Of a stretch of 39,552 bases of DNA, positions 1 to 18,664 are shown piece by piece. The stretch lies in UHGV virus genome UHGV-0150234; one strand, 5' to 3'. Source of the stretch: a virus. A program made the position numbers and the translations under genes. A model generated the notes under the pieces. The model saw only the letters and a program-made list of their open reading frames with translations. It was not told the origin of the DNA and did no database searches. How positions within the stretch are numbered: the first letter of the stretch is position 1; each line of letters begins with the position of its first letter.

Positions 1-46
1 GTACATAATTCACCATTATACGCGCGTATAATGGTGAATTATGTAC
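1..46. other. telRL: Telomere resolution site telRL: perfect 46-bp palindrome (may extend left of the window) containing a 22-bp telO-like core
   Basis: Positions 1-23 are the exact reverse complement of 24-46. The core CCATTATACGCGCGTATAATGG (13-34) matches the N15 telO sequence as I recall it. Protelomerase gene lies immediately downstream. Confidence 0.85.
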
Positions 47-90
47 TGATTATCGAAACAAAGTCAAGGAACAAAATTTCACGTTCTGCT

Positions 91-180
91 ATTGTGTTTC
101 ATTTTATAGTCTGATATTGTGTTCTACTATTTTGTGAGTAAGTTAACTAGGTATTGGTTATTTTATTCTTAAATTGTGTT
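91..180 (+). repeat. Three direct copies of ATTGTGTT (91-98, 116-123, 173-180) between telRL and telN; possible TelN accessory (tos-like) sites or telN promoter elements
   Basis: Exact 8-mer seen three times in the AT-rich leader. The N15 telRL arms contain a related ATTGTGTG motif from memory. GATAATC also occurs three times (48-54 as reverse complement, 183-189, 196-202). Confidence 0.35.
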
Positions 181-214
181 ACGATAATCTGAGCGGATAA
201 TCAGGAGAAGAAAG

Positions 215-2104
215 ATGAGCAAAGTAAAAATCGGTGAATTAATAAACTCACTTGTTAGCGATGTTGAGTCAATAGATAACTCTGACCGTCCTCAAGGAGA
301 GAAAACAAAAAAAATAAAGGCCGTTGCATTAAAATTTAAAAATACATTATTTAATGATAAGCGAAAGTTTAGGGGAAAAGGATTAGAAAAGAGAATTACA
401 GCCAACACATTCAATTCCTATATGAGCAGGGCCAGAAAACGGTTTGATGATAAACTTCATCATAGTTTTGAAAAAAATATACATCGACTATCTGAAAAAT
501 ATCCTTTATATAATGAGGAGCTATTGTCATGGCTCTCTCTACCTGCTGCCGATATTCGCCGGAGAATGTCAGCTTTACAGGCAAAATTAAAATTAATTAT
601 TCCTCTGTCCGAAGATTTATCTAATATCAGAATTGGTGATAATAAAAATAATAATAAGTTAATAAAGTTATCAAATAAATATAAAGAATGGCAATTTGCC
701 ATTTCTGATTTAACTAGCGATAACTGGAAAGATAAACGCGATTATTTATATAAATTACTACAGCAAGGGTCAGCCTTGCTTGAGGAGTTGAATCAGTTAA
801 AGGTTAACCATGAGATTCTCTATCATCTCAAACTAAGCCCTGCCGAACGCGCATCTATCCAGCAACGATGGGCGGACGTACTACACAATAAGAAACGTAA
901 CGTAGTAGTCATTGACTACCCTAAATATATGCAAGCTATTTACGATATTATAAATAGCCCTGCTACATTAAATAATCTAAACACTCGTTCAGGCATGGCT
1001 CCTTTGGCATTTGCTCTTGCTGCATTATCAGGAAGACGAATGATTGAGATTATGTATCAAGGTACATTTACTGTCTCTGGTAAGTATACCGTTGATTTTT
1101 TAGGTCAGGCTAAAAAAAGAACTACTGATGATGTAACCAGAAAAATATATACATTATGCGAAGCAAAAACGTTTGTTTATTTAATAAATGTACTTCGCTC
1201 ATGCCCAGCAGCATCTGATTTTGATGAAGTCGTTATGGGTTACGGAAATAACGACACGCGGTCTGAAAACGGACGTATTAATGCCATATTGGCAAAGGCT
1301 TTTAATCCATGGGTTAAATCATTTTTCAATGATAATCGCCGTGTTTATAAAGATAGTCGTGCTATTTATGCCCGTATTGCGTATGAAATGTTTTTCCGCG
1401 TAGATCCCCGTTGGAAAAATGTAGATGAAGATGTTTTCTTTATGGAAATTTTAGGCCATGACGATGAAAACACTCAATTACACTATAAACAATTCAAGCT
1501 GGCCAACTTCTCAAAGACATGGAGGCCAAATACTGGAAACGAAAATACCAGGCTGGAAGCATTGCAGCTGCTTGATGACGAAATGCCTGGATTCGCCAGA
1601 GGAGATGCCGGGGTTCGTCTGCATAACACAGTTAAGCAGCTGGTAGAGCAGGACCCCTCTATAAAAATCACGAACAGCACTCTAAGAGCATTCAAATTTA
1701 GCCCAACAATGATTAGTCGATACCTGGAATTTGCTGCTGATGCTCTGGGGCAATTTGTTGGCGAAAATGGACAATGGCAGCTGAAAATAGATACTCCAGA
1801 AATCGTTATGCCTGACGAAGAAGAGCTGGAAGCAATACCTGAACAGATGGATGAATTATCAGAGGATGACGATCTGGATGACGACGAAATTGAGATAGAG
1901 GAAGAGGAAGAGAGCGTAGAAGAACAGCAACCGCCAGCGCCTTCTTCACCTGTATCTAAGCCGGTATTTAAGCCTGTGAGAAATATTGGTGATGGCTCAT
2001 ACGTTGTTGAGTTTCATTATAATGGCCAGAATTATGCGTGGTCAGGCAGTGCAAACAGCCCCATGTCAGCAATGCAGTTAGCATGGCTGACATATTTCGG
2101 CTAA
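215..2104 (+). CDS. telN: Protelomerase TelN (telomere resolvase), 629 aa
   Basis: Near-identity along the whole length to N15 TelN as recalled (MSKVKIGELIN..., tyrosine-recombinase-like core, acidic C-terminal region). Sits next to telRL. Confidence 0.95.
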   Translation: MSKVKIGELINSLVSDVESIDNSDRPQGEKTKKIKAVALKFKNTLFNDKRKFRGKGLEKRITANTFNSYMSRARKRFDDKLHHSFEKNIHRLSEKYPLYNEELLSWLSLPAADIRRRMSALQAKLKLIIPLSEDLSNIRIGDNKNNNKLIKLSNKYKEWQFAISDLTSDNWKDKRDYLYKLLQQGSALLEELNQLKVNHEILYHLKLSPAERASIQQRWADVLHNKKRNVVVIDYPKYMQAIYDIINSPATLNNLNTRSGMAPLAFALAALSGRRMIEIMYQGTFTVSGKYTVDFLGQAKKRTTDDVTRKIYTLCEAKTFVYLINVLRSCPAASDFDEVVMGYGNNDTRSENGRINAILAKAFNPWVKSFFNDNRRVYKDSRAIYARIAYEMFFRVDPRWKNVDEDVFFMEILGHDDENTQLHYKQFKLANFSKTWRPNTGNENTRLEALQLLDDEMPGFARGDAGVRLHNTVKQLVEQDPSIKITNSTLRAFKFSPTMISRYLEFAADALGQFVGENGQWQLKIDTPEIVMPDEEELEAIPEQMDELSEDDDLDDDEIEIEEEEESVEEQQPPAPSSPVSKPVFKPVRNIGDGSYVVEFHYNGQNYAWSGSANSPMSAMQLAWLTYFG

Positions 2105-2117
2105 AACATACGTTAAA

Positions 2118-2143
2118 GGCACCGAATTAATCGGTGCCTTGTT
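2118..2143 (+). terminator. Putative intrinsic terminator after telN
   Basis: GGCACCGA / TCGGTGCC stem with 5-nt loop followed by TTGTT, starting 14 nt after the telN stop. Confidence 0.45.
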
Positions 2144-3447: not shown

Positions 3448-3502
3448 GGTATGCACTCCGTTTAATTGGTCGTGCTACCACCAGAGTTCTCACGCTCTTG
3501 AA

Positions 3503-3584
3503 TGGTGGTAGCCCAAGCGGGGGTGAGAATACCGGCAAACGAAGAAACCGGCCTGACCGAAGTCAGCCCCGCCTGAGCCACCAT
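3503..3584 (-). ncRNA. Structured RNA candidate, copy 1 (about 82 nt; possibly C4/immI-type antisense RNA in the antirepressor operon leader)
   Basis: Minus-strand reading has a CUGAC-UUCG-GUCAG tetraloop hairpin, a GCGGGG/CCCCGC stem, and a 3' end GGGCUACCACCA. A paralogous copy at 3818-3898 shows compensatory changes. Confidence 0.45.
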
Positions 3585-3817
3585 AAATCGGATATGCGCA
3601 GGTATATACACACAAAAAAACACGCTGGCGCGTGTTGTGCGCTTCGTTTATCCGGGTTCTCACGCCCGGCTGCGGGATTTACCGCAGCGGAATAACTTTA
3701 CCGTCAAAACGACGCACACGTCAATAATTTGCAAAGACATTTTACCCTGTGACCAGTCACGGGGATAGGTGTTTTTATAGTTTGCTTAAACAAATGATTA
3801 GAAGATAAACGATATTG

Positions 3818-3898
3818 TGGTGGTAGCCCAGGCAGGGTTCTCAACACCGGCCCAAACGACACCGGCCAGCCTTTCGGCTGCCCCGCCTGAACTACCAT
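3818..3898 (-). ncRNA. Structured RNA candidate, copy 2 (paralogue of 3503-3584)
   Basis: Same conserved 5' (AUGGURGYUCAGGCGGGGC) and 3' (GGGCUACCACCA) ends as copy 1; the hairpin is CAGCC-GAAA-GGCUG (GNRA tetraloop), covarying with copy 1; internal loops differ. Confidence 0.45.
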
Positions 3899-4001
3899 TA
3901 GAATAATATACAACAAAACGTAGCATTTTTACTACATTAAAATATAAATATTGTTTACACTTTACTTTACTAATGGGGCGGCTCGGGCTATCCTGATTTT
4001 G

Positions 4002-4078: not shown

Positions 4079-4894
4079 ATGGATACTATCGTTGTGACAG
4101 CTCCATCACCATCAACTAACTTACCGAGTTATGGTAATGGCGCATTTTCTCTCTCAGCACCACACGTGCCTGGTTCTGGCCCCCTTTTAGTCCAGGTGGT
4201 TTACAGCTTTTTCCAGAGCCCAAACATGTGTATTCAGGCTCTAACTCAGCTTGAGGACTACATCAAAAAACACGGTGCCAGCGATCCCCTGACATTACAA
4301 ATTATGTCAACAAATATTGCCTACTTCTGTAACGCTGACAGAAACCTTATCCTTCACCGCGGAATAAGTGTTTATGACGCCTACCACTTAGCTAAACCTG
4401 CGCCAAATAAATATGACTATCGCTCAATGAATATGAAACAAATGAGCGGTAATGTCACAACACCAATTGTGGCGCTTGCACACTATTTATGGGGTAATGG
4501 TGCAGACCGAAGCGTTAATATCGCAAATATTGGTCTCAAAATTTCTCCGATGAAAATTAATCAGATAAGAGATATTGTAAAATCTGGTGTAGTAGGCACA
4601 TTCCCTATTTCTACAAAATTCACACACGCCACTGGCGATTATAATGTTATTACCGGCGCATATCTTGGTAATATCACGCTGAAAACAGAAGGTACTTTAA
4701 CTGTCTCCGCTAATGGCTCATGGACCTATAATGGCGTTGTTCGCTCGTATAACGACAAGTATGACTTCAATGCCAGCACTCATCGTGGCGTAATCGGAGA
4801 GTCTCTTACAAGGCTCGGGGCGATGTTCTCTGGTAAAGAGTATCAGATACTACTTCCTGGCGAAATTCACATTAAAGAAAGTGGCAAGCGATAA
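4079..4894 (+). CDS. cma: Colicin M (lipid II-degrading bacteriocin), 271 aa
   Basis: Full-length, near-identical to colicin M as recalled (same 271-aa length, ...VTAPSPSTNLPSYGNGAFSLSAPHVPG..., C-terminal ...GEIHIKESGKR). AT-rich relative to flanks. Confidence 0.92.
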   Translation: MDTIVVTAPSPSTNLPSYGNGAFSLSAPHVPGSGPLLVQVVYSFFQSPNMCIQALTQLEDYIKKHGASDPLTLQIMSTNIAYFCNADRNLILHRGISVYDAYHLAKPAPNKYDYRSMNMKQMSGNVTTPIVALAHYLWGNGADRSVNIANIGLKISPMKINQIRDIVKSGVVGTFPISTKFTHATGDYNVITGAYLGNITLKTEGTLTVSANGSWTYNGVVRSYNDKYDFNASTHRGVIGESLTRLGAMFSGKEYQILLPGEIHIKESGKR

Positions 4895-4944: not shown

Positions 4945-5301
4945 TCAATCATTTGCATATTCAACATAACCTTCCTTGCAATGGTACATTCCATAATACA
5001 TTCTCTTACCTTCCGGGCCTTCGGCTTTAAATGGGACGAGAAGCGTTTTTTCATCTTTAACATCTGTTAAGCTTCTTTCAATCTTTTCCCACGTAATTTT
5101 TGGGGCTTCTGTACCGAGAAGTTGTACATCGTTATTCCAACGCGTTATTTTTTTCAAAAAGTCATTTTTTACAAATTCTCTTGCCTGTTCATCACTAACC
5201 TTATAGCACTCTGGGCCTTTATTAGATTCAGGCCAGAAAAATACAATAGCAAGAGCAATAATTGATAAAATCAAAATGATTTTTATGCTAATTACTTTCA
5301 T
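4945..5301 (-). CDS. cmi: Colicin M immunity protein (membrane-anchored, periplasmic), 118 aa
   Basis: N-terminal hydrophobic anchor (ILILSIIALAIVFF) and strong resemblance to Cmi as recalled (…KITWEKIERSLTDV.DEKTLLVPFKAEGP.GKRMYYGMYHC.EGYVEYAND); convergent with cma. Confidence 0.88.
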   Translation of the reverse strand: MKVISIKIILILSIIALAIVFFWPESNKGPECYKVSDEQAREFVKNDFLKKITRWNNDVQLLGTEAPKITWEKIERSLTDVKDEKTLLVPFKAEGPEGKRMYYGMYHCKEGYVEYAND

Positions 5302-16093: not shown

Positions 16094-16381
16094 TTAATAA
16101 ACAGCGCGAATATCGATGGTTGCGCCGCAGGCATGAGCATATTTAGCCAAAGTTTTCATACTTGCCCCTAAAGGATTGCTTTCCAGGCGGCTGATGGCTG
16201 ACGGGCGCAACCCCATTCGTTCAGCCAGAGCTGATTTCGTTAAACCTGCTCTTTCCCTCATTTCGTATAACATTTCGACCATCTCCAGCTCTTTGTCGGC
16301 CTCTTCATATCCTTTGACGGCTTCTGGAGTGTTGAGGAGTTTTTCTTTTACTTCGTTAAACGGGATGCCTTTCGCTTTCAT
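16094..16381 (-). CDS. HTH-XRE antitoxin (HigA-like), 95 aa
   Basis: HTH segment LTKSALAERMGLRPSAISRLE; start overlaps the stop of the upstream RelE/HigB-like gene. Confidence 0.75.
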   Translation of the reverse strand: MKAKGIPFNEVKEKLLNTPEAVKGYEEADKELEMVEMLYEMRERAGLTKSALAERMGLRPSAISRLESNPLGASMKTLAKYAHACGATIDIRAVY

Positions 16382-16692
16382 CAGTTCATCTCCTTCAGGC
16401 GAGTTCTGGCGATTTCGATAGCCTTCACCGGTGTTTTCTGTGTCTTTTTTACAAATGCATGCAATAGATAAATTTCGTTACCAGTCGCGTAGGCGTACAG
16501 CGTTCTTGCGATGTTTTTATCCCCTACTCGTAGTTCAAAAAGCCCTCCACCTATTACACGGCTATGAGGCATCTTCAGTTTGTTGCCTTCTTTCTCCAGT
16601 CGCTCAATTAATCTGGTCATGCGACCTCGCAAATCATCTGGTAGTTCAAGCAGTTCATCCAGTGCTGCAGGGTGGGTTATCACGTTAAACAT
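16381..16692 (-). CDS. RelE/ParE-superfamily toxin (HigB-like), 103 aa
   Basis: Size and sequence features of RelE-like mRNA interferase with toxin-first gene order; GGAGG ribosome-binding site on the minus strand. Confidence 0.7.
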   Translation of the reverse strand: MFNVITHPAALDELLELPDDLRGRMTRLIERLEKEGNKLKMPHSRVIGGGLFELRVGDKNIARTLYAYATGNEIYLLHAFVKKTQKTPVKAIEIARTRLKEMN

Positions 16693-17452: not shown

Positions 17453-17587
17453 GTGCCTGAAAAGTGGGCGCAGGACAAGTTGCAGCTTGTCCTGCGGTCA
17501 ACCCATGCCAGAGCTATAGGCTGAACCTAAAGCCCACCCGCGATGCGCATCGCCGGGTTAGCTTACCCAGGCAAAAAAATAATAGCT

Positions 17588-18664
17588 ATGTTCAAAACCA
17601 CTAATATTCATGGCGCACAACTCGTTTGCGCAGATTCTCTGCAATTTATCAAAACCATCCCTGATAACTCGGTCAATTTGATTGCAACAGACCCACCATA
17701 CTTCGGCGTAAAGGCTAACGCATGGGATAACCAGTGGGATAGCGATGCTGACTTTTTGGGGTGGATTGACGAATTTTTGGCAGAATTTTGGCGGATATTG
17801 GCCCCTAATGGCAGCCTGTATATGTTTACCGGCTCTCGCCTTGCGTCAAAAATTGAATTATTAACTCGCGACCGTTTCAATGTTCTGAACCATATCATTT
17901 GGGCTAAACCCAGTGGTATGTGGCGCGGTTGTCATAAAGAAAGTTTAAGGGCTTATTTTCCTGCTACTGAAAGAATATTATTTGCAGAGCATTACGGCGC
18001 GTCAGGTTATGCTAAAGGTCAGTCAGGTTATGCTTCAAAATGTGCAGATTTAAGAAAAAATATTTTTTCTCCACTAATTGATGCTTTTTCGCTGGCTCGC
18101 CGTCAGTTAGATATATCAGCCGCAGACATTAATTCAGCGACAGGAAAGCAGATGTGTTCGCACTGGTTTTCTTATTCGCAGTGGCGGCTTCCATCATTAA
18201 TTGATTTTAATAAACTATGCGAATTATTTCGCAGGAAGGCAGATTCACTCGGTGTCCCGTGTCCATATCCTTTTAATGTTGATTATTCAGAACATGAAAA
18301 GCGTTATAGCGATCTGAAATTGCATTATGAGGAAGTAAAGAAGCAGTATGATGATTTGAAGGCTCAGTATGAAAATTTGCGCCGCCCATTTCATGTTACT
18401 GCTGATGTACCTTATACCGATGTATGGGAGTTTCCTCCTGTGCAATATTATCCTGGCAAGCACCCATGTGAAAAACCTGCAGCGATGATGGAACATATTA
18501 TAAAAAGTAGTTCACGCCCCGGAGATATCGTTGCCGATTTCTTTATGGGATCAGGCTCTACTATTAAAGCCGCGCTGAAGTTAGGTCGTCAGGCAATCGG
18601 TATTGAGATTGAGGGTGAACGTTATCTTCAGACAGTTGATGAAGTGAAAAAGTTATTTGAGTAA
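17588..18664 (+). CDS. Orphan DNA methyltransferase (amino-MTase, beta class: DPPY motif before FxGxG), about 358 aa
   Basis: LIATDPPYFG (motif IV) near the N-terminus and ADFFMGSGST (motif I) near the C-terminus; no adjacent restriction endonuclease gene recognised. Confidence 0.85.
   Translation: MFKTTNIHGAQLVCADSLQFIKTIPDNSVNLIATDPPYFGVKANAWDNQWDSDADFLGWIDEFLAEFWRILAPNGSLYMFTGSRLASKIELLTRDRFNVLNHIIWAKPSGMWRGCHKESLRAYFPATERILFAEHYGASGYAKGQSGYASKCADLRKNIFSPLIDAFSLARRQLDISAADINSATGKQMCSHWFSYSQWRLPSLIDFNKLCELFRRKADSLGVPCPYPFNVDYSEHEKRYSDLKLHYEEVKKQYDDLKAQYENLRRPFHVTADVPYTDVWEFPPVQYYPGKHPCEKPAAMMEHIIKSSSRPGDIVADFFMGSGSTIKAALKLGRQAIGIEIEGERYLQTVDEVKKLFE

Follow-up and report, generated by a model that had tools for sequence, protein, structure and literature searches.

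An N15-type telomere module at the end of a metagenomic phage contig: the terminal palindrome is probably a telL end with its own mirror image

The virus genome UHGV-0150234 (39,552 nucleotides, here called the window) begins with a perfect palindrome that contains the telO core of phage N15, and telN, the gene for a protelomerase (telomere resolvase), follows directly. The question raised by this locus is what the palindrome represents. A first reading made from the sequence alone took it to be the uncut telRL junction and expected that it might continue to the left of the first base. The window is the whole of contig Ga0495776_026176 from the JGI metagenome 3300045988 (L050 in the survey described below, to which it is identical over the 12,104 nt compared). 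Base 1 is the end of this complete contig and no sequence exists to the left of it, so the suggested extension is lacking. Comparison with related loci instead indicates that bases 1-23 are probably wraparound sequence from the telL hairpin or from a replicated but unresolved telLL, and not one half of an uncut telRL.

The palindrome occupies positions 1-46. Its two arms (1-23 and 24-46) match each other's complement at 100% of positions and meet without a spacer, and the chance expectation for such a palindrome in 39.5 kb is about 6e-10. Folded as single-stranded DNA it reaches -18.8 kcal/mol (z = -9.4). The 22-bp telO core CCATTATACGCGCGTATAATGG (13-34) is identical to that of N15, and the earlier description of a perfect 46-bp palindrome with a 22-bp telO therefore holds. 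Exact copies of the core were found at 38 further public loci, every one in an N15-like context, and a telO scan of genome contigs gave one locus only, in Pseudocitrobacter. The native TelK target has CGCGCG between its scissile positions (PMC3558466). The central CGCGCG of the window (21-26) lies, by homology with that target, between two predicted scissile positions, which would place the cuts on either side of 21-26 and the hairpin tip between 23 and 24.

To the right of the centre, the telL arm comprises 28 nt (24-51, + strand) as judged from an alignment of 13 relatives and the annotated N15 telRL. It consists of the right half of telO (24-34), a variable spacer at 35 and an R3-type repeat at about 36-50 (AATTATGTACTGAT), of which ATTrTGTrCTGAT is conserved in the alignment. 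The mirror image of this arm (1-23), complementary to 24-46, starts at the contig end with GT at 1-2. The window accordingly carries the parts of a resolution site, namely telO with CGCGCG, an R3-type arm and degenerate copies of the repeat in the flank, and its contig end has a 23-nt terminal inverse duplication centred on telO. The L-series repeats lie off the contig.

At the first two bases the window has GT, which mirrors its bases 45-46 exactly. Three contigs with identical TelN (L045, L047 and L048) contain true sopB-sopA-telRL-telN junctions that are symmetric for 21 nt per arm only. Past these 21 nt their telR arm is ...CGAA|ACATAATT, as against ...CAGT|ACATAATT for a mirrored telL. 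The telR arm of the L045 type is ...CGAAACATAATT, and a reading from the sopA side would give ...AACATAACGAA in place of GT, while the telL mirror, if continued to the left of base 1, would read ...CGATAATCA|GTAC.... Over the compared 12,104 nt the window differs from L045 at only four positions: bases 1 and 2 (GT versus AA) and the mirror pair 12/35 (A/T versus C/G). BLAST matches to relatives all start at query base 3 because bases 1-2 of the window differ. At the positions matching these two bases the telR arm has AA or GC in 20/20 full junctions surveyed and likewise in six further junctions; GT was found in none of the 20 + 6. A telR-derived arm with the sopA-side flank on its left, which an uncut junction would have, is absent from the window.

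The mirror pair points in the same direction. A substitution in a hairpin arm is mirrored automatically, whereas the arms of a true junction change independently, as in L056 where the same A variant is found on the telR arm only; the pair 12/35 therefore favours a wraparound. The A/T of the window is a singleton, and all near-identical relatives have C/G at this spacer, which separates telO from the R3 arm. The same spacer is the asymmetric position in the telRL of N15 and varies widely among relatives. Viral and metagenome contigs gave no match in exact scans for the arm with the A variant, nor did metagenome contigs in a scan for the C-variant arm; the metagenome collection is evidently without this contig. 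Because of GT at bases 1-2 and the mirrored substitution, the palindrome is best read as telL and its own mirror image. This reading strengthens the conclusion that the element has hairpin telomeres.

Read-through of this kind is common among related records. The survey covered the 38 further loci with an exact telO and 22 loci with the same or a sister TelN, all oriented with telN to the right, and they fall into three classes. True junctions, flanked by sopB-sopA to the left and by telN to the right, are symmetric for 11-27 nt per arm and unrelated beyond 28 nt; the junction of N15 itself has 11 perfect nt per arm with 26/28 arm positions matching. In fold-backs the symmetry is perfect over 99 to 9,809 nt and telN is present in mirror image, as in the GenBank record of YDC107_1 (L001, CP025712.1), where telN and BRO genes are mirrored and the symmetry extends 368 nt. 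Terminal contigs either run 11-51 nt beyond the centre or end 11-22 nt before it, and the telR-side contigs L020 and L043 likewise carry the mirror of their own arm. Terminal inverse duplication is an accepted assembly signature of hairpin telomeres from work on Borrelia (bioRxiv 10.1101/2025.07.18.665644), and both the replicated-end and the hairpin sites are predicted by N15 biology (PMC12624138).

One contig with identical TelN (L046) is 96,085 nt long, or 2 x 48,042, and is symmetric over the 9,809 nt available to the left of the centre. Its double length would be that of a duplex closed at both ends and read as one strand. Mirror duplications round telL were also observed in L001, L054 and L059 and in the plasmid matches H21, H24, H26, H31, H32, H38, H40 and H44, and inflated N15-like records include 'plasmids' of 61-91 kb with two telN places in addition to the 96-kb double-unit contig. 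These mirror duplications are assembly read-through of hairpin ends and not real structures.

Several observations weigh against a wraparound in the window. It is only 23 nt long, and the discrimination depends on bases 1-2 and one mirror pair. The telR end of the element is off the contig, so a telR arm beginning with GTAC is possible. Arms are symmetric at position 12 in about 15/25 true junctions, which makes symmetry alone weak evidence. In addition, an independent MEGAHIT k141 contig (L049, ENA ERZ27285750) stops at the same +23, which is explained neither by (k-1)/2 at k = 141 nor by a shared palindrome of 21 nt. Finally, a physical hairpin in this sample is a prediction from assembled sequence.

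Simple rules for the position of contig ends were considered and rejected. A wrap length of (k-1)/2 fits three contigs of a sister lineage (L062-L064), which end at +27, equal to (55-1)/2 and to the length of the shared arm there, with k = 55 assumed from the contig names. The rule does not fit +23 at k141, nor the mixed wraps of 18, 23 and 1,759 nt in the JGI assembly 3300045988. A branch-point model, which has contigs end at the divergence of mirror and junction, gives +21 for the present lineage, where +23 is seen. The length of the perfect arm does not discriminate either, because true junctions have 11-27 nt and a value of 23 is uninformative.

A different account of the joint +23 stop is that the telR arm of this strain also has GTAC. 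The 46 bp would then be a perfect palindrome shared by all three of telRL, telLL and telRR, and bases 1-23 would belong to no single form. The assembler would have stopped at the left boundary, where it could continue either into the sopA side or into the mirror. Contigs stopping at the edge of a shared palindrome are indeed known, at +21 in L008 and L017 (one genome) and at +27 in L062-L064, although the latter fit (k-1)/2 at k = 55 equally well. Such a shared node would explain why the window and L049 stop at the same place, and a telR arm reading ...GTACATAATTCACC would fit it and not a wraparound. However, no surveyed telR arm has GT at positions 23-22, and the three junctions with identical TelN, which otherwise do not differ in 12 kb, have AA and hence a 21-nt boundary. 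The rare A variant would also be needed on both arms independently. A shared node is therefore considered unlikely.

That the contig is an uncut telRL of the phage or circular form and merely happens to end at the palindrome, as the sequence-only reading had it, is given very little probability. In its favour, all 46 bp form a complete and perfect palindrome, and real junctions of related elements reach 27 perfect nt per arm. Yet the unique flanks of a pure junction would give the assembler no cause to stop, and the window, a complete contig, has no leftward extension. The disagreement of GT with the AA of near-identical junction-bearing relatives and the mirrored substitution at 12/35 both speak against an intact palindrome being an uncut junction, and this part of the sequence-only reading is not retained.

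A more speculative idea, to which a very slight chance is assigned, is that +23 marks a discrete physical DNA end or nick, for example from an SbcCD-type incision near a TelN-capped end that was filled in at library preparation. If so, the ends of metagenome contigs would report telomere processing in vivo. A more modest alternative, with the same slight chance, is that the element belongs to an undescribed sublineage of telomere phage-plasmids with a 42-bp perfect core, asymmetric outer arms (telR CGAAAC versus telL CAGTAC) and a diverged colicin M.

Library preparation and assembly can in general produce inverted chimeric reads and palindromic contig ends as artefacts. A technical fold-back at a random contig end is nevertheless extremely improbable here because the symmetry axis lies exactly at the centre of telO, the known resolution point of TelN, and because the same placement is seen in dozens of independent assemblies, at telL as well as telR. 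A chromosomally integrated or defective remnant can practically be dismissed: the 4.85-Mb record that lists a related TelN is a wraparound mis-joined to a chromosome, no place in complete E. coli genomes is chromosomal, and the backbone of the window is intact, N15-type and without host flank.

The relatives of the module bear this out. Close relatives were found in 17/5,426 complete E. coli genomes at 23 places, 23/23 of them on plasmids and 0 on chromosomes. The apparent exception is a sister TelN (P0006) on CP088660.1 (L054), where telN is present in mirror image about 13 kb from the end of the record and the sequence is symmetric for 6,823 nt. Chromosomal integration was rejected for this record, which is a fold-back mis-joined near the chromosome end. 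Integration, which the sequence-only reading had named as the finding that would overturn it, was thus not observed among these relatives, and its proposal of an N15-type linear plasmid-prophage is supported by the telO core, the R3-type arm, TelN, the backbone and the plasmid-only relatives. The element can on these grounds be described as an N15-type linear plasmid-prophage with putative hairpin telomeres.

The protelomerase gene telN (215-2104, + strand) encodes 629 amino acids, as noted earlier, and is preceded by the ribosome-binding site AGGAG (203-207, + strand). Four Pfam domains, TelK_N, TelK_muzzle, ResT-TelK_cat and TelK_stirrup, are found in canonical order with E = 1e-25 to 6e-51, at 3-6x the cut-offs. 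The crystal structure of phiKO2 TelK (2v6e), about 80% identical, aligns over residues 1-536 (E = 7.9e-292), and the alignment has just one gap, of one residue. The catalytic tyrosine is Y424, which corresponds to Y425 in TelK (chain residue 445 minus a 20-residue tag) and to Y425 in N15 TelN, with the HY motif aligned. It is numbered 424 and not 425 because of a one-residue deletion near position 306. The catalytic tyrosine region, whose absence had been considered beforehand as a reason to doubt the assignment, is thus present.

R275, K300, K379, R382 and H415 are also conserved in the alignments to 2v6e and N15 TelN. The roles of these residues are presumably those that they have in the active site of TelK, set beside the list for TelA. 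The R-K-K/Y-R-H-Y positions align with Borrelia ResT too, and the equivalent active-site hexad of TelA has been listed (PMC3558466). By analogy with these enzymes the TelN of the window would be catalytically active.

The amino acid identity of TelN is 79.1% to N15 TelN and 97.0% to the TelN of YDC107_1. Compared with N15, the catalytic and stirrup domains have 88-92% identity, the muzzle 68% and the acidic C-terminal tail 61%. The database comparison proposed in the sequence-only reading yields the exact protein in NCBI, where it is named 'protelomerase' or 'telomere resolvase' and comes from E. coli and Shigella sonnei. It is encoded on 21 contigs, and clustering at 90% identity places it in a group of 682 members.

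Between the dyad and telN lies a flank of 190 bp. When relatives whose TelN is 72-100% identical are aligned, several islands of conservation stand out in it, including an AACA box at about 57-60 and the degenerate R-series repeat ATTGTGTT, which is conserved as ATTrTGTT (copy 1 at 91-98 and copy 2 at 116-123, both + strand). The most conserved block is TTCTtaaATTGTGTTACGATAAT (166-188, + strand), with near-invariant columns, the consensus TTCT...ATTGTGTTAyGAT and the third copy of the repeat at 173-180; it is located just upstream of the ribosome-binding site and ends in a possible -10 element, GATAAT (183-188, + strand). ATTGTGTT has three exact copies in the 39.5-kb window, all within 91-180. 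The count is not significant, as 21/100 shuffles reach three, and it is the clustering and the conservation that carry weight. This layout agrees with that of the N15 target, which is about 310 bp long and has degenerate R1 and R2 copies of R3 (PMC12624138). The flank repeats and the block 166-188 are candidate binding sites for TelN, a candidate telN promoter, or both. A consensus promoter scan gave no + strand site upstream of telN.

Downstream, a stem-loop at 2116-2140 separates the convergent telN and Bro-N genes, with a 10-bp stem (2116-2125/2131-2140) and a 5-nt loop. It folds at -20.4 kcal/mol (z = -4.75) and 0/200 shuffles fold as well. The stem-loop is probably a terminator. Its T-tract is weak, and for this reason a consensus terminator scan missed it. 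The end of the module at 2143 in the sequence-only reading is explained by this stem-loop.

Close homology to N15 TelN and phiKO2 TelK suggests how the module might work. Its parts are the telL end, some 190 bp of telomere-proximal flank in which degenerate copies of the TelN site recur, the gene telN and a stem-loop that resembles a terminator. After infection and circularisation at cos, a TelN dimer would bind telRL and make cuts staggered by 6 bp round CGCGCG through a 3'-phosphotyrosyl link to Y424. Each half would then be refolded and resealed as a hairpin, giving telL and telR. Replication from an origin internal to repA would duplicate the ends, and telLL and telRR would be resolved likewise, after which bound TelN might shield the hairpins from SbcCD. 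The contig would in this scheme start 23 nt past the hairpin tip, the reads having crossed the closed end or come from replicated, unresolved telLL.

The closest well-known system is phage N15 with its telRL/tos and TelN (gp29). Both have the identical telO, an R3-type arm, degenerate flank repeats and a telN start about 190 bp from the dyad, and in both the neighbours are a Bro-N antirepressor-like gene, the immA RNAs and repA. The window differs in that the identity of the module DNA is only about 72% and in that the arm is GTACATAATTCA compared with GCACACAATTGC in N15. Its TelN has a diverged muzzle (68%) and C-terminal tail (61%) and lacks one amino acid, and of the site only the telL side and its mirror are present. 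TelK of the Klebsiella phage phiKO2 (2v6e) has the same four domains and active-site residues, and its target likewise has CGCGCG at the centre, but phiKO2 has another host genus and other outer target arms, and the protein of the window is known from sequence alone. Borrelia ResT and Agrobacterium TelA share the family of the catalytic domain, the chemistry and the inverse-duplication signature of hairpins. They are distant (ResT E = 1e-3, in the catalytic domain), have no muzzle or stirrup, act on other targets and are chromosomal or plasmid-borne and not from phages.

Among close relatives, the Escherichia phages YDC107_1 (CP025712.1) and PhiR46_1 (PV340565.1) and N15-like plasmids from E. 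coli, E. albertii, E. fergusonii and Shigella have 94-95% nucleotide identity in the module and 97% amino acid identity in TelN. YDC107_1 is also 96.8% identical over 93% of the late region and has the same kind of wraparound, of 368 nt; the relatives are classified as Ravinvirus. The YDC107_1/PhiR46_1 group differs from the window in having CAGCAC and not CAGTAC in the telL arm and in lacking the colicin M cassette. Draft-genome and metagenome contigs with identical TelN (for example GCA_014461515.1 DABRAT010000018.1 and ERZ27228175 k141_27587) are 99.96-99.98% identical over 12 kb and carry the same colicin M, but they contain a true telRL or a 96-kb fold-back, or stop 11-22 nt before the tip, and have C and not A at arm position 12.

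The telomere module is thus already known, since the exact TelN is public and near-identical DNA (99.96-99.98%) exists in draft genomes. In every comparison made at the level of sequence, with the exception of the uncut junction, it appears as the N15/phiKO2 telomere system. Modules of this type are well characterised and the window adds little biology. It does show how a complete-looking palindrome at the contig end of a telomere phage is to be read, namely as hairpin wraparound and not as uncut telRL, and the asymmetric bases that immediately flank the shared palindrome provide a simple test to separate telRL from telLL and telRR. Many 'circular' or oversized (61-96 kb) public records and at least one 'chromosome' contain mirror artefacts.

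The telR arm is dimorphic among close E. coli elements, about 22-28 nt to the left of the telO centre. It reads ...ACGAAAC... in L045, L047, L048, L004, L021, L036 and L058 and ...ATCAGCAC... in L006, L029, L037, L055 and L060. A telRL of the ACGAAAC type is perfect over 42 bp only, with asymmetric outer L3/R3 and 23/28 arm positions matching. This implies that TelN may tolerate a one-sided loss of symmetry in the outer arm.

The remainder of the contig has the N15 backbone, with telN beside tel, the Bro-N gene, RepA, CB, Cro, Q and lambda-like morphogenesis genes. RepA (1,331 amino acids) has matches to Toprim and an origin-binding helicase (Herpes_ori_bp). The right end of the contig falls inside the tail gene J, in a region about 96% identical to hundreds of lambdoid phages, and the break is probably due to copies of this sequence in co-resident lambdoid prophages. 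Of the element, which measures roughly 48 kb, about 8.5 kb is missing, comprising the rest of J, lom, the tail fibre, sopBA and telR. SopAB is found beside telRL in the 99.98%-identical L045, L047 and L048, and the contig of the window ends before that region.

Three RNA matches on the - strand (3501-3588, 3615-3688 and 3816-3902) mark an N15/P1-type secondary-immunity (immA) region. Two of them are C4 antisense RNAs, scoring 82 and 69 bits, and one is isrK with 64 bits; each exceeds its Rfam gathering score. The region adjoins small Icd-like and Ash-family open reading frames.

A colicin M cassette separates the immA RNAs from the genes near repA. The colicin M gene is full length (4079-4894, + strand; 271 amino acids) and matches 2xmx end to end with E = 9e-174; beside it is a YebF-family Cmi-like immunity gene (4945-5301, - strand). 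The cassette was absent from the 50,697 phage records searched. It is about 86% identical in nucleotides to each of 440 colicin M plasmids in PLSDB, none of them above 90%. A literature search found no paper that mentions colicin M together with a protelomerase, and for colicin M and phage-plasmids it gave general reviews only. The cassette was present in 9/9 loci with identical TelN, and the exact colicin M protein on 61 contigs. By its sequence the colicin M/immunity pair appears as a diverged cassette carried as cargo on an N15-like element.

Other accessory content is typical of N15. A Gp49-family toxin with an HTH_3 antitoxin, HigBA-like, is located at 16094-16692 (- strand), and an N6/N4 DNA methylase at 17543-18664 (+ strand) in the early-right region. 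The morphogenesis module (19000-39552) is about 96% identical to many lambdoid and Stx-converting phages.

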